From: Chthoniobacteraceae bacterium
GTDB taxonomy: Bacteria > Verrucomicrobiota > Verrucomicrobiia > Chthoniobacterales > Chthoniobacteraceae
Reading direction: 5' to 3'
Assembly: GCA_031409335.1 (NCBI GenBank)
Contig: JANNWY010000095.1
Coordinates: 1-64,000 of the forward strand
Length of the DNA stretch: 64,000 bases
Shown here: piece by piece, positions 4,213-19,107 of the stretch
Numbering within the stretch: position 1 is the first letter of the stretch
How the letters are laid out: each line of letters begins with the position of its first letter
Translations under genes and position numbers: made by a program
Notes under the pieces: generated by a model
Seen by the model: only the letters and a program-made list of their open reading frames with translations
Told to the model about the DNA's origin: nothing
The model's database searches: none

Positions 4213-5283
4213 ATGTTCCTCCCCAAAACGCTGAAGGCCATCGCGCTCGCCTCGCTCTTTGGCGCGTCCGCGTCCGCGTTCGATATCCAACTCGATGCGA
4301 GCCCCGGCCTTTCCGCGAATCCCGCCGCGCTCAGCGCCTTCGAGCGCGCCGCCGCCGCATGGGAAGCGCGGATCGCGGACCCCATCACCATCGTCATCAA
4401 AGCCGATCTCGAACCGCTCGGTCCTGCCATCATCGGCTCGACCAGCAGCATCTACCTTTCCGGTGATAACTTCGCAGAAATCCGCGACGCCATGGCGGCG
4501 GACGATCTCGCGGAAGGCGGCACGCTCGGCCAGTTCCTGCCGACTTTCGCGCAGCTCAATGTCGTGCTGCCCGCGGGACGGACGGTCTTCAACAGCATGT
4601 CCGCGACGCAGGCAAACTTGAAGGCGCTCGGCTTCCCCAGTTCGCTGCTCGAAATCATTTCCGGCCACCGCGAAGACGCGACGATCAGCTTCAGCACAAA
4701 TTTCAACTTCGACTTCGACAGCTCCGACGGCGTCGGCGTCGGCCTCGTCGATTTCCAAACCGCCGCCACGCACGAACTCGCGCACGCGCTCGGCTTCGTC
4801 TCCGCCGTCGATAACATCGACTACACCACCGTCGCGGAGTATTCGCGGATATACCTGAATCCGCTCGATCTTTTCCGCTTCGGAAATGTCCCCGGCGCCG
4901 ATCCCGCGACCCCCGCCGATTTCACCACTTTCGCGCGCGATCTCAGGCCCGGTTTCGCGGCCCACTTCGACGACCTCATCAACGAATTTGAAATGGCCAC
5001 TGGGTTCAATGGCGGTGACGGCAGGCAGGCGAGTCATTGGAAAGATGACCAACTCACCGGCACCATCGTCATCGACGAAAACGGCTACCACTATGAGCCC
5101 GGCATCCTCATCGGCATCATGGATCCGACGCTCGATTTCGGCGTCTCGTACGGTCCCTCCGAAGCCGATTTCGCGCTGCTCGACGCCATCGGCTACCAGA
5201 TTCTCCCGGCCATTCCCGAGCCATCCGCTGCGCTGCTCGCGCTGCTCGGCGGCGCCACTTTTTTGCGCCGTCGCCGGGGATAG
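4213..5283 (+). CDS. Secreted zinc metalloprotease (NF038122-like) with PEP-CTERM sorting signal
   Basis: Signal peptide, HELAHALGF zincin motif, QASHWKD and GIMDPT motifs, C-terminal IPEPS-TM-RRRR. Confidence 0.88.
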   Translation: MFLPKTLKAIALASLFGASASAFDIQLDASPGLSANPAALSAFERAAAAWEARIADPITIVIKADLEPLGPAIIGSTSSIYLSGDNFAEIRDAMAADDLAEGGTLGQFLPTFAQLNVVLPAGRTVFNSMSATQANLKALGFPSSLLEIISGHREDATISFSTNFNFDFDSSDGVGVGLVDFQTAATHELAHALGFVSAVDNIDYTTVAEYSRIYLNPLDLFRFGNVPGADPATPADFTTFARDLRPGFAAHFDDLINEFEMATGFNGGDGRQASHWKDDQLTGTIVIDENGYHYEPGILIGIMDPTLDFGVSYGPSEADFALLDAIGYQILPAIPEPSAALLALLGGATFLRRRRG

Positions 5284-14316: not shown

Positions 14317-17300
14317 ATGTACACACATCGCAATACACCCGTTCATGCAGCAATCGCCCGAATCGCAGTCCGAGCCCGAAATCTCCTCGTGCTGCTTGCA
14401 TTATCCTTCTCCGTCTCACCGCCCGCACCGGCGGCTGAGGATGGATTTTCGCCAATCTTCAGCGGGACGCTGAACGGCGATTTTGTCACCGCGGGGAGTT
14501 ATTCGCGCGTGTTCGATGCGCCGACTTCGCAGACCGATCCGTTCGCCGTGACGCTCGGTGGCATCCCGGCCGGGAGCACGGTGGTGAAGGCGTTCGCGAA
14601 CTGGACTTATCTCACCGACCTGCCGGGCGATCCCGGCGAGGCGAGCATTACCATCAATGGCAATCCGGTGGTGGGCACGCTGGCGCTGGGTTCGCCGGAT
14701 GTCGGTTGGGGAAAATCCTCGTCCGCTTCATACACGGCGGATGTCACTTCCTTGGTGAGCGGCAATGGCGTTTTCAGCATCGGCAGCGCGATCGACGATG
14801 TGGTGTCGGAGGCGTACGGCGAAGGGTTTTCGCTGGTGACGGTGTTCAGCAATCCGGCCCTGCCGCGCAGCGACATTTATGTCTATTCCGGCCTCACCTC
14901 GAACACGTCGAATCCGCCGGAGGGTTTCGCGCCGGCACTGGCGGACTATCAATTCACGCTCGGGGCCTACAACGGTGGTCCGGCACATTTCTTCATCAAT
15001 GCCTTCGACGGCCAGACGGGGGCGGATACGTTTTCGATCAACGGCCTGAATGCGGGCGGAATCCTCGGCGGCACCGGCTCCGCGCTGGATGCGTGGCAGG
15101 GCAAGCTCGGGCCGGCGGCGGCGGGAAATCTTTATGATCACGGCGAGGGAAATGTGGCGGCGTTCATGTCCGTGGGGCAGACTTCGCTCACGGCGCGCAC
15201 GGCGATCGGAGCGGGCGCGGCGGGCGATGCGGTGGGGCACAGCTTCGGCGCGATCCGATTCTCCTCCGGCGCGATCCCGGAGCCGGGCACTGCGCTGTTC
15301 GGCGTGGGCACGCTAATGGCAATGCTGTGCGCGCGGCGGCGGCGGCGGCGCGGGATGCTGTGCGTGCTCGGCGCGCTGACGATGCTCGGCGCGGCGCAGG
15401 CGGGAGCGCAAACTCTCACTTGCCCGAAGCAATCGACCCCCATCGCCATCGGATTTTTAGAATCCCGGCTGGTGTGTGTGAATCCCGATCAAGACACCAT
15501 CTCGCTCTTTGATCCGGCGACCCCATCGCCCACGAAGCTCGCGGAGATCGCCGTCGGCGCGGAGCCAAACAGCGTGGCGATTCAGCCATCCGTCCCGTTC
15601 GCCTACGTGGCGAATTCGGTGAGCGGCACGGTCTCGGTGGTGAACCTCACGGCGCAACTGACCACCGCCACCATCCCGGTGGGTGCGGAGCCGAGGGCGC
15701 TGGTGCTCTCGCCGAATGGCACGCGGCTCTACGTGTCGAATCATTCGTCGAACACGCTCAGTGTCATCGATACGGGGTCGCTCAGCGTCATCGCCACGGT
15801 GGACTTGCGCGCCTTTGGCTCCGCGCCGGGCGCGCTCGCCGTGACCCACGATGGCGACACCGACGACACCGACGAGACGGTGCATGTCGCGCTGTTTTTC
15901 GGCCAGCTCCGGCCGGGAAAAGGGAGCGTCGATGAAGGCCAGGACGACCAGCGCGAGGGCCGCGTCGTGGCGATTTCGGCGGCGACGAACACGGTGCTCG
16001 GGAACGCGGTGCTCGGGCCGCTGGCCAACGCCGGCTTCAACTCGAACGGCCGGCTCGCACCCGCGCCCGGCCAGGTGCCCGCCGTCGCCTCGACGAATCC
16101 GCAGACTTTCACCACGCCGACCGGCGCGTATCCGAATCAGCTCGCCGCCATCGCGCTCCATCCCACCACGGGCCGCGGCTATGTCGTGAGCACGGGCGCT
16201 TCGCCCAATGGCCCGCTGCGTTTCAATCAAATGGCGCAGGGGCTCGTCTCCGTTTTCAACGCGGCGACGCGCACCGAGATCACCGCGGCGCAGACCGATC
16301 CCACCGTGCGCCGCACCGCGCCGCTCAATCTCAACCAAGGCGTCAACCTCGCCACCACGCCAGCGCCCCGGCTTTTCCTCACGAATCCCGTGGCGCTGGC
16401 GTGGCGGCCCAATGGTTCGGATGCGTGGGCGGTGATCCAGAATGGCAATCTCGTCGTGCGGCTCACCGTCGATGCGAACGGCATCCCGTCCGCGGGCGCG
16501 CCGCTCGTCGCGGGACCGAGCACGATCGTGCGCGTGGATTTGCAAAACCCGCCCGCCGGTCTGCTCGTGGGCAAAGCCCCGCGCGGCATCGTCATCAACG
16601 ACACCGGCACGCGCGCCTACGTGTACAATTTCGTCAGCCGCTCGATCAGCAACATCGACATCACGAATCCCGCCGCGCCCGTCATCGTCGGCACCGTGCA
16701 GGCGAGCGCGCCGCCCGCGCCGGGGACGATCGGTTTCACCGCGCAGTTGGGCGCGGAACTTTTCTTCACCGGACGCGGGCCGCAGGAGCGCATGTCGAGC
16801 GAAAGCTGGGGCGGCTGCATCGTGTGCCATCCGTTCGGCGGGCGCGCGGATGGCGTGACGTGGATGTTCGACGCGGGGCCGCGGCAGACGATCCCGCTCG
16901 ATGGGATGTTCGATCCGAACAACACCGCCGATCAGCGGCTGCTGAACTGGAGCGCGGTGCGGGATGAAAATCACGACTTTGAACTCAACACGCGCGGCGT
17001 CTTCGGAGGGCGCGGCCTCATCGACGACGACCGGCTCTTTCTCGCCATCGGCGGAGTGAACGGCGCGACCCCCGCGGACACGGCGCTGATCGAGCAATTC
17101 CACAATGCCAACGGCGCGGTCACGACGACGAACGATCTGCGCAATGGCACGGCGCTGCCGTCGCTCGCAGCGTTCGGGGCGCGGCGGGATTTCGCGGTGG
17201 CGACGCTTTCCGACGACCGCGTTTACATCCTCGGCGGGCGCAGCGGCGCGGGACAGGGGACGCTGATCTCTGGCGCGAATACGGTGCTCGAATTCAACCC

Positions 17301-18723
17301 GCGCACGAACATCATCCGCACGCGCAGCGCGGTCGGCTTCACGCCGCGTCATTCGCTCGGCGCGGCGGCGGTGAAGACCTCGGGCGGGCCGCGCATCTAC
17401 GCCGTCGGCGGCTACGCGGGCACGTTGGCGTCGGCTTCTCCGACCGCCACCGTCCAGGAGTACAATCCGGCCACCAATACGTGGCGCACCGTCGCGTCGC
17501 TGCCCACGGCCGTCGCCGAGTTTGGCATCACCGCCGCGGGCGGGGTGAATACCGCGGAGCCGCTCGAACTCATCCACGTAGTCGCGGGGAACACCGGCTC
17601 GGAAGCGGCACCCTCGCTGACGATCGCGAACCCTGTGCAGCGCTTCCAGGCCGATCCCACCGGGCCGGGTACGTGGAGCACCTTGAATCCCTCGGGCCTC
17701 GGCCTCACCCCGCGCCGCCTGCTCGGCGCCGCCGTCGCGTTGCGCGGCGTGATTTCGCGCATCTTTGTCATCGGCGGTGTGAATGCCGCCGGCACCGTGC
17801 TCGACACCGTCGAGGAATATACCGCGCAAAGCGTGCTGCTCGTCGCCACGCCGCACACCGCGCTGCCCGCGCCGCGCGCGCGTTTCGGGGTCGCGAGCAC
17901 GACTTCCTCCAATCAGATCTATGTCGTGGGCGGCGTCGATGCGGGAGGCGCTGACCAGACGAGCGTCTTCGAGTACACCATCGCCGCCAATGGGCCGGTC
18001 GCCGGTCCCGCCGGCACGCCGAGCGGGACGTGGGTGACGCGCGGAAATCTGTCCGCGCCGCGCCGCAGCCTCGCGCTCTCGAATCCGCCGGGCGTCACGA
18101 ATTTCCTCACCGTGCGCAACAGCGGACGCAACGCGAGCCAGGACGCCATCGCCGTGTGGGTCGCGCGCAATCTGCGCTCCGCCGTCGCGCCCGTGGCGGC
18201 AGCCGATCCGCAGGCGGTCGCGGGCCGCACACTCTTCGGCACCGCCGGTCTCGTGCAGGCGGGCATTAGCTGCGCGACGTGTCACGGCGGTGGAAAATGG
18301 ACGCGCTCGAACCGGCCCTACGTCGGACCGCCTTCGCCAGAAATCGGCCTCGGCCTCGGCAACGAGCGCGTGATCGGCGCGGAACTGCGCGTCACCGCCG
18401 CGCAGCCCGCCGTGCTCACCAACGTCGGCACGTTCACCCTCGGCGGCGGGCGCACGAACGAAGTGCGTTTCAACGGCGCGGACATCAGCCAGGCGATCAA
18501 TCCGCTCGGAGCAAACGGCTTCAACATTCCCTCGCTGCTCAGCGTCCACGAGACCGCGCCGTATTATTACAACGGCCTCGCGCAGACGCTCGAAGAAGTG
18601 CTCAACGGCTCGCAAGACAGCAACGGCGGGACGCGCCATCACTTCGTCACGAATGCCGCACAGCGCGCGCAACTCATCGCCTTCCTGCGCTCGATCGACG
18701 AGACGACGCCGGTCTTTCCGTGA
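14317..18723 (+). CDS. Multidomain exported protein: DUF3344-like domain + internal PEP-CTERM + second signal peptide + YVTN beta-propeller + di-heme cytochrome c (CCP/MauG-like) with Kelch insertion
   Basis: Signal peptide. IPEPG-TM-RRRRRR at 15274-15351. AYVANSVSGTVSVV / LYVSNHSSNTLSVID repeats. CIVCH at 16816 and CATCH at 18271. Kelch GG...EY/W repeats. IPSLL...APYYYNG motif. Confidence 0.85.
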   Translation: MYTHRNTPVHAAIARIAVRARNLLVLLALSFSVSPPAPAAEDGFSPIFSGTLNGDFVTAGSYSRVFDAPTSQTDPFAVTLGGIPAGSTVVKAFANWTYLTDLPGDPGEASITINGNPVVGTLALGSPDVGWGKSSSASYTADVTSLVSGNGVFSIGSAIDDVVSEAYGEGFSLVTVFSNPALPRSDIYVYSGLTSNTSNPPEGFAPALADYQFTLGAYNGGPAHFFINAFDGQTGADTFSINGLNAGGILGGTGSALDAWQGKLGPAAAGNLYDHGEGNVAAFMSVGQTSLTARTAIGAGAAGDAVGHSFGAIRFSSGAIPEPGTALFGVGTLMAMLCARRRRRRGMLCVLGALTMLGAAQAGAQTLTCPKQSTPIAIGFLESRLVCVNPDQDTISLFDPATPSPTKLAEIAVGAEPNSVAIQPSVPFAYVANSVSGTVSVVNLTAQLTTATIPVGAEPRALVLSPNGTRLYVSNHSSNTLSVIDTGSLSVIATVDLRAFGSAPGALAVTHDGDTDDTDETVHVALFFGQLRPGKGSVDEGQDDQREGRVVAISAATNTVLGNAVLGPLANAGFNSNGRLAPAPGQVPAVASTNPQTFTTPTGAYPNQLAAIALHPTTGRGYVVSTGASPNGPLRFNQMAQGLVSVFNAATRTEITAAQTDPTVRRTAPLNLNQGVNLATTPAPRLFLTNPVALAWRPNGSDAWAVIQNGNLVVRLTVDANGIPSAGAPLVAGPSTIVRVDLQNPPAGLLVGKAPRGIVINDTGTRAYVYNFVSRSISNIDITNPAAPVIVGTVQASAPPAPGTIGFTAQLGAELFFTGRGPQERMSSESWGGCIVCHPFGGRADGVTWMFDAGPRQTIPLDGMFDPNNTADQRLLNWSAVRDENHDFELNTRGVFGGRGLIDDDRLFLAIGGVNGATPADTALIEQFHNANGAVTTTNDLRNGTALPSLAAFGARRDFAVATLSDDRVYILGGRSGAGQGTLISGANTVLEFNPRTNIIRTRSAVGFTPRHSLGAAAVKTSGGPRIYAVGGYAGTLASASPTATVQEYNPATNTWRTVASLPTAVAEFGITAAGGVNTAEPLELIHVVAGNTGSEAAPSLTIANPVQRFQADPTGPGTWSTLNPSGLGLTPRRLLGAAVALRGVISRIFVIGGVNAAGTVLDTVEEYTAQSVLLVATPHTALPAPRARFGVASTTSSNQIYVVGGVDAGGADQTSVFEYTIAANGPVAGPAGTPSGTWVTRGNLSAPRRSLALSNPPGVTNFLTVRNSGRNASQDAIAVWVARNLRSAVAPVAAADPQAVAGRTLFGTAGLVQAGISCATCHGGGKWTRSNRPYVGPPSPEIGLGLGNERVIGAELRVTAAQPAVLTNVGTFTLGGGRTNEVRFNGADISQAINPLGANGFNIPSLLSVHETAPYYYNGLAQTLEEVLNGSQDSNGGTRHHFVTNAAQRAQLIAFLRSIDETTPVFP

Positions 18724-18734
18724 CCGGGAGCCCG

Positions 18735-18811
18735 TTCAACATCCAACACCCAGCTCCAATGGACCTCGCGGATGTTCGCGAGCAACATTGGGTGTTGGAA
18801 GTTTGATGTTA
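18735..18811. repeat. Degenerate inverted heptamer-repeat hairpin
   Basis: TTCAACATCCAACACCCAGCTCCAA ... TTGGGTGTTGGAAGTTTGATGTTA right after the stop of the large ORF. Confidence 0.6.
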
Positions 18812-18849
18812 GGCGGCATCACACACGTCAGCAGTTTCCAATCAAAACT

Positions 18850-19107
18850 ATGAACGCAATGAACACACAGATGAAAGCTACTTGGCGGAAGATGGTCGGC
18901 ACCGCGCTACTGTGGGTGGCCTTCGCTGCCCTCGTTTACGTTCCGTCATCCGGCGGCGGTGCGAGAGGCACGATCGTCGCGTGTATTGGATTGTTGTCCT
19001 TCGCTTCCGGTCTCGCGCTGTTCGCGGACGGCCTGAAGCGCGACATCGTTGAGCAGCTTCGCGGAGACCGAAGTGCGCAGAGAAACGCAGAGAAGTGTCC
19101 GAGCTAG
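18850..19107 (+). CDS. Small two-TM membrane protein, hypothetical
   Basis: Two hydrophobic segments separated by a Gly-rich loop; AC-rich leader before the ATG. Confidence 0.6.
   Translation: MNAMNTQMKATWRKMVGTALLWVAFAALVYVPSSGGGARGTIVACIGLLSFASGLALFADGLKRDIVEQLRGDRSAQRNAEKCPS

Follow-up and report, generated by a model that had tools for sequence, protein, structure and literature searches.

A predicted secretory polyprotein with an internal PEP-CTERM tag and a second signal peptide in a Chthoniobacteraceae bacterium

Can a sorting tag that normally ends a protein join two exported proteins instead? The question is raised by an open reading frame (ORF) at 14317-18723 of a 64,000-nucleotide stretch of DNA (the window; contig JANNWY010000095.1, assembly GCA_031409335.1, Chthoniobacteraceae bacterium, uncultured and from sediment), in which a PEP-CTERM tag is followed at once by a second signal-like stretch and a second protein. 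The available part of Haft 2006 places this tag at the C-terminus virtually always (PMC1569441). A preliminary description, made from the sequence alone, had seen one uninterrupted ORF and proposed that two exported proteins could be released from it in a 1:1 ratio. The frame is stop-free over 1468 amino acids (aa), and we put a probability of about 0.7 on its single product being a secretory polyprotein from which two exported proteins, unit A and unit B, are cut. This reading is supported by fused homologs, by recurrence of the layout and by contigs from two other samples; the cuts and the 1:1 output are what we infer from it.

The junction and the start of translation

The ORF encodes, in order, a signal peptide, A, an IPEPG motif with its helix, six arginines, a second hydrophobic stretch with an AxA site, and B (Table 1). 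Both signal peptides were called by a hydropathy rule and by eye. Of the four 15-residue windows with the highest hydrophobicity in the ORF, three fall on the N-terminal signal, the tag helix and the stretch from 15352, and no other membrane helix lies between signal 1 and the tag (hydropathy rule, homologs). The first AxA sits at an equal position in aligned fused and unfused homologs. All three parts of a PEP-CTERM tag, the motif, the helix and the basic cluster, are present as first described, and the motif scored 23.4 bits with PF07589 in a six-frame search of the genome, over the cut-off. We regard it as genuine, though low-scoring in the libraries. Behind it, the n-, h- and c-region pattern of an internal signal is found where the partner's usual signal peptide sits (rule-based), and the Arg run would double as the n-region of this signal. 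Signal peptidase I is predicted to cut after 15402 (AQA/G), with an alternative AGA site after 15408. The preliminary description had preferred AGA/Q; the AxA retained in the alignment of the two closest homologs (P0002 and P0003) is AQA/G.

Table 1. Predicted features of the ORF, in window coordinates
Feature	Position	Strand	Basis or detail
Single ORF, predicted two-unit secretory precursor, 1468 aa	14317..18723	+	stop-free frame; start context of ATG 14317
Signal peptide 1, predicted Sec/signal peptidase I, AxA ahead of mature start	14317..14433 (aa 1-39)	+	hydropathy, homologs
Unit A, DUF3344-like, predicted two tandem jelly-roll beta-sandwiches	14434..15273 (aa 40-319)	+	PF11824 below cut-off; model
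Internal PEP-CTERM	15274..15351	+	PEP motif 15274-15288, transmembrane helix 15289-15333, Arg6 15334-15351
Signal 2, hydrophobic stretch and AQA	15352..15402	+	position equals N-terminal signal peptide of unfused B homologs
Unit B, predicted periplasmic di-haem c-type cytochrome, two beta-propellers, ~1100 aa	15403..18720	+	domains, homologs, model
B: YVTN-type beta-propeller, ends approximate	15424..16713	+	TIGR02276 65 bits; model; PDB 1l0q, 5c2v_B by sequence
B: haem-binding motif 1, CXXCH	16816..16830	+	invariant in homolog alignment
B: Kelch beta-propeller between haem motifs, ends approximate	17035..18048	+	PF01344 74 bits; Foldseek Kelch, TM (target) ~0.85
B: haem-binding motif 2, CXXCH	18271..18285	+	invariant in homolog alignment

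The layout shares with the PEP-CTERM/exosortase system (EpsH, Xrt; PF07589, TIGR02595, PF09721) the signal peptide, PEP motif, helix and basic cluster, which occur in this genome in 171 copies alongside four exosortase-family genes (four PF09721 matches over the cut-off, all four over that of TIGR04178 and one over that of TIGR02602). It differs in that the tag lies 1123 residues from the C-terminus, ahead of a second export signal and a second protein. The ORF product is thus not a canonical PEP-CTERM substrate, the location of the tag not being C-terminal. Genome-wide, 142 of 171 motifs lie no more than 10 residues from a stop and 5 of 171 are followed by at least 100 residues, which suggests that the layout in the window is more than chance.

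As far as can be seen, no assembly error is apparent at the junction. Run X2 yielded a contig covering 13900-15708 with no differences and no gaps, and run X3 one covering 15002-15430 with one difference and no gaps; the stop or indel after the Arg run that had been raised as a concern is absent from both. Both are assemblies of further samples from the study that is the possible source of the window, and their support is modest. The contig comparison marked 15325-15360 as a repeat at which records appear truncated, and among the pieces listed for runs of two other studies none spans the junction. Conservation in homologs is the stronger support for a real junction.

We evaluated start sites by their context. 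Among 170 motif-bearing frames, a signal-peptide rule gave 114 starts as a reference; their upstream 20 bases contain 11% G and are nearly unstructured (mean -2.2 kcal/mol). Genome-wide, the starts inferred in this way lack a Shine-Dalgarno (SD) sequence and are A/C-rich upstream. ATG 14317 falls at the 56th percentile of this set and ATG 14254 at the 4th. The junction holds three in-frame ATGs, at 15316, 15322 and 15355, of which only the last had been noted before; all three rank in the 0-1st percentile, and with folding energies of -18.7 to -22.2 each is more structured than any of the 114 reference starts. Given that the junction ATGs are G-rich and structured, and so lie outside the start context of this genome, a restart of translation is unlikely. 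Third-position GC is 0.91 in the junction, compared with 0.53 in the true leader. The missing SD sequence at ATG 15355, cited earlier, is void as an argument on restart and was dropped, since true starts here seldom carry one (6/114 inferred starts and 24/400 internal ATGs have SD-like words). The junction lacks a Met in two fused homologs (P0004 and P0005) at the protein level, where codons are not readable, and in the first of two junctions in genome G104 no ATG, GTG or TTG occurs on the way from PEP to the predicted cut site; possible starts are present in other junctions, for example in G081 and G071. Together these data, with start use judged from context, point to a single start and one frame across A and B.

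The two units, their homologs and the history of the fusion

Unit B, which accounts for the roughly 1100 aa noted earlier behind the internal signal, returned 376 homologs at E<=1e-50. Motifs were counted on the best 120 of these, and all 120 have exactly two CXXCH. The set contains 115 unfused proteins: 108 start with Met, 103 of the 108 show a hydrophobic stretch within their N-terminal 45 residues, and in 97 of the 103 a basic residue precedes it. Signal 2 of the window matches the position of these N-terminal signal peptides exactly. The two retained CXXCH motifs and the signal peptides of the unfused homologs indicate that B is exported. The attachment of haem c takes place outside the cytoplasm. 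If the chain crossed the membrane for the last time at the tag helix, B would lie in the cytoplasm, where its CXXCH motifs would serve no purpose, yet they are kept in 5/5 fused proteins. With conserved CXXCH, an export signal and two cytochrome c assembly genes (PF01578) in the genome, B is a predicted c-type cytochrome that should reach the periplasm. The locus is a clean test case, because B would gain haem only if re-exported.

What B does is less evident from its relatives. The 376-member family bears domain names only. B shares with hydrazine synthase beta/beta-gamma and with MauG/MbnH-like proteins a propeller followed by two CXXCH and differs from them by a Kelch propeller inserted between the haems, and the matches are weak: 48 of 560 bits for NF052340 and 32 of 1250 bits for NF052342, on which hydrazine synthase beta or beta-gamma was rejected, and 15-19 bits for TIGR04039 and TIGR03981, all far under the curated cut-offs. 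Foldseek on the B model returned Kelch domains only, the cytochrome parts being modelled with low confidence. The family is conserved at 64-74%, di-haem and present in several phyla. This genome also holds an unfused B paralog and a more distant one (C218, L008; C86, L009); in the distant paralog the Kelch insert seems to be absent, and the next gene is a PEP-CTERM gene.

For unit A, the DUF3344-like domain named earlier is matched by PF11824, weakly (23-26 bits, cut-off 27.2; E 8e-6). Its structure model has a pLDDT of 68.7, and Foldseek gave no match at E<=0.001 (best VIA Z 5.7); the model being of low confidence, we make no claim of a new fold. That A has a carbohydrate-binding role at the surface is a guess. 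A related-locus search for A found three genome loci and one metagenome locus, none of them a full fusion; the closest titled genome locus (L019, Chthoniobacteraceae) is 65% identical. The tails carried by domain A vary (P0135, P0133, P0134, L022): the domain may continue into a different, PEP-less membrane tail, into thrombospondin type 3 repeats, into a VPES tag that has another hydrophobic stretch and then an early stop behind it, or into a Thr-rich linker with Cys-rich repeats.

Four further proteins, of 1455-1472 aa, span both A and B, and the supposition that all homologs might be encoded as two separate genes fails on them. Compared with the window, they are 65-89% identical in A, 77-90% in B and 38-85% in the junction, which is 43-52 aa long and in frame every time. 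The helix-basic-helix-AxA pattern is retained despite the divergence of the junction, and PEP is kept in 4/5 fused proteins. A quick-search tree of 18 B sequences groups the five fused proteins with a remnant in genome G095 and with P0024 in one clade (7/18 rows, SH-aLRT 99), suggesting a single origin. The fusion is, judged from these homologs, old, reversible and not required. It likely arose once by stop loss between adjacent in-frame genes and was kept since, with re-splitting in some lineages. A recent fusion or lost stop codon, proposed earlier as an alternative, therefore holds for the origin and does not describe the present state: the fusion has outlasted ~35% divergence in A and >60% in the junction.

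The G095 locus (L018:1860-6690) has A tandemly duplicated as a free gene with a terminal tag, followed by the B gene. This B gene starts with a copy of the A leader (72% DNA identity), 27 A residues, a helix, a basic run and signal 2; its PEP is deleted, and an acidic Pro-rich linker follows signal 2. The arrangement is consistent with translation starting at the upstream leader, and it suggests that B export is independent of exosortase.

Recurrence of the joint

We searched for the same junction between other partners, a check that the preliminary description had proposed. In 151 genomes of the family, a search with a junction profile pointed, among the best 150 of 320 rows, to five genomes with unrelated partners: G002; G104, with three units and two junctions; and G071, G073 and G081, which share one pair. 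With a second joint in the window's own genome (C152) and one in another genome of the phylum (G227), the layout does recur. Against 1.84 billion representative proteins the profile matched 8771 at E<=0.001, many of them surely owing to the terminal tag alone. Among the best 150 matches, 141 hold 260 internal motifs, and a second hydrophobic stretch lies no more than 45 residues after 253 of these; 192 of the 253 carry a strict AxA and 185 lack a Met. Control windows were hydrophobic in 210 of 2932 cases, 39 of them with AxA. The downstream units number 257 and fall into 124 clusters. Up to ten units occur in one protein, with PEP kept in every repeat, and P0139 (named Planctomycetales bacterium) has ten tags.

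We hold it slightly more probable than not that a PEP-CTERM tag plus signal peptide is a reusable polyprotein joint in bacteria, by which Sec, signal peptidase I and exosortase would turn one frame into two to ten exported proteins. Such joints would form repeatedly on stop loss between tandem surface-protein genes, because the Arg run of the tag doubles as the n-region of the next signal.

In the window's genome, the second joint (C152:27656-31789, L014, minus strand) connects two PEP-CTERM units directly. It comprises a repeated domain with passenger-associated repeats, an internal PEP-CTERM, a signal-like stretch with Met, and then the same domain again with a terminal PEP-CTERM; its 5' end is lost at the contig end. 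At C153:35744-35917 (L015) and C66:23352-23504 (L016) the frame reads through 50-60 codons of repeat DNA to a second signal-like stretch, and the second units look frameshifted. The palindromic element that forms the C153 linker has 178 blastn matches in the genome. G002 carries a tight fusion of this same gene pair; as joints, C153 and C66 are ambiguous. The long extension in C62 is non-coding read-through and was set aside. Elsewhere, G158 was not confirmed as a joint, and G273, G018 and G123 have stops in frame.

Tandem PEP-CTERM genes in one frame, with the tag, a stop, a 7-8-codon spacer and then ATG with a signal peptide, were seen in G392 (L090) and G360 (L091). This arrangement is likely the precursor state, one substitution away from a joint. 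Some joints of P0139 (residue 1937), P0140 (271) and P0152 have a long spacer with Met ahead of the signal, and these spacers look like a retained old intergenic region and start.

Proposed processing, competing explanations and known systems

These data allow us to hypothesise how the product of the ORF would be processed. Translation would begin at 14317, and signal 1 would take A through Sec and then be removed. The PEP-CTERM helix would act as a stop-transfer that leaves the Arg run in the cytoplasm, and the next hydrophobic stretch would re-enter Sec as an internal signal, with the Arg run as its n-region. Signal peptidase I would cut at AQA/G (or AGA/Q) and release B to the periplasm, where haem would be attached. 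Exosortase would cut at PEP, so that A is sorted like a protein with a terminal tag, and a two-helix hairpin would remain after both cuts. Both cuts are predictions: that signal peptidase I frees B is likely, and that exosortase acts on the internal tag and frees A is reasonably probable, the release of B being better supported than the action of exosortase.

A number of observations weigh against a chain that is cut into two proteins. The motif reached 16.3-18.6 bits with PF07589 by hmmscan (cut-off 20.7), and TIGR02595, whose use had been advised earlier, gave no match at E<=0.1. Long extensions after the motif are rare in this genome, at 5/171, and long-tailed PEP-CTERM proteins are described as possibly non-functional in the part of Haft 2006 available (PMC1569441). 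Unfused forms are common: 115 of the best 120 of 376 B homologs are unfused, of 18 shorter A homologs 10 have a terminal PEP tail and no B (two of these 10 share 86% identity with the window), and fused and unfused rows are intermixed in the A tree. P0005 has VPET and a single Arg, and the G095 B gene has lost PEP, from which the exosortase step may be dispensable or absent. As for recurrence, the best-150 set is biased, since the profile itself includes signal 2; in the less biased but small subset of 17 proteins for which a match to the PEP half suffices, a hydrophobic stretch follows 52/53 motifs. Among 300 other genomes of the phylum, 2 of the best 150 of 626 rows are stop-free across the junction, one of which was confirmed (G227).

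Several of these points would suit a chain of the same topology that is cut once or never, leaving A and B facing the periplasm and tied by the two-helix hairpin, or, as a variant, releasing B alone with A anchored as exosortase ignores the internal tag. The weak motif scores, the change of PEP to PET in P0005 and its deletion in G095 favour it, as does the remark on long tails in the portion of Haft 2006 cited above. We consider it unlikely, given that AxA follows 192/253 second stretches compared with 39/210 in controls and that PEP is kept in most fused proteins and in all repeats of the multi-unit proteins. Internal tags are also processed in archaea, according to the accessible text of PMC9263693.

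Much less probable still is that one frame holds two translation units, B being made mostly from 15316, 15322 or 15355 and the read-through product being incidental. ATG 15316 or 15322, if used, would provide B with a good signal peptide of its own, basic n-region included, a further point against the polyprotein; a Met also precedes signal 2 in C152, G071 and P0003, and P0024, which belongs to the clade of the fused proteins, was predicted as a gene of its own beginning at the hydrophobic stretch. The start context of the junction ATGs, all at or under the 1st percentile, and the GC difference between junction and leader speak against such use, as do the 185/253 junctions without Met and the one junction without any standard start codon; without a stop, moreover, A would still be made fused. 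The least probable reading is a chance read-through or assembly error without meaning, with B mislocalised or decaying. Stops are rare at high GC, the C62 extension is indeed meaningless, C153 and C66 combine repeat-derived linkers with broken second units, and the G073 frame ends 93 residues past the motif. This explanation is largely refuted already: the junction matches contigs of other samples, and five intact fused proteins of one clade have kept both CXXCH across 23-35% divergence.

Secretory polyproteins cut by signal peptidase are textbook knowledge for viruses. The flavivirus envelope polyprotein has an anchor helix followed by the signal of the next protein, cut by signal peptidase; its junctions are viral, belong to the eukaryotic endoplasmic reticulum (ER) and carry no exosortase tag, and the likeness is one of working, not homology. 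To our knowledge, secretory polyproteins are thought rare in bacteria. Thony-Meyer 1991 is said to have described the cytochrome b-c1 precursor of Bradyrhizobium japonicum, in which one gene reportedly yields two proteins by cleavage of an internal signal-like linker, the downstream product being a c-type cytochrome. That precursor differs from the window in giving one fixed subunit pair of one complex and in having no sorting tag, whereas the window junction would be a reusable module between unrelated cargos.

Sorting tags appear able to work in mid-protein, judging from the accessible parts of PMC11980579 and PMC9263693. MXAN_5598 has a mid-protein MYXO-CTERM tag that is ascribed to gene fusion in the former, and an ArtA substrate whose tripartite signal is not terminal (Abdul Halim 2017) is cited in the latter. 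Both share with the window a usually terminal tripartite tag in mid-protein, with processing proposed or shown; they differ in tags and proteases, and no second signal peptide or multi-unit array is described in the text available. With its downstream outer-membrane barrel, MXAN_5598 might itself be a concealed case of this layout. For LtaS, cutting by signal peptidase I at an internal site is stated in the available portion of PMC12260438. Only terminal PEP-CTERM tags are treated in the accessible text of PMC12188702, PMC3237569 and bioRxiv 10.1101/2023.06.07.544157. Our literature search found no paper on an internal PEP-CTERM with a signal peptide, a search whose two-term matching lone mentions may escape and which did not extend to supplements; that for a secreted bacterial polyprotein with a signal peptide returned 0 papers. 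For questions of priority, Table S1 of PMC11980579 and the protein lists of Haft may be relevant. Sorting tags inside proteins have already been published, as has a bacterial precursor of two proteins, and the PEP-CTERM form would be a new variant of sorting with a polyprotein-like working.

If the polyprotein reading is true, a modular joint would let bacteria obtain a fixed ratio of several exported proteins from a single gene, exosortase would need no free C-terminus, and many long 'PEP-CTERM domain proteins' would have been misread as single proteins. A two-reporter chain with the natural junction would be a simple assay for exosortase, whose cut site is poorly defined, and the joint could serve protein co-secretion in engineered bacteria.

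In the window, the ORF is flanked by genes for an RNase E/G-like protein and a glutamate-tRNA ligase-like protein (translations labelled by eye). Right downstream of it, a gene at 18772-19107 (+) encodes a small predicted membrane protein, the 85-aa core of which has no Pfam or NCBIfam match. A further PEP-CTERM-like motif of 19.5 bits lies at 5209-5277 (+), in a frame of 468 codons.

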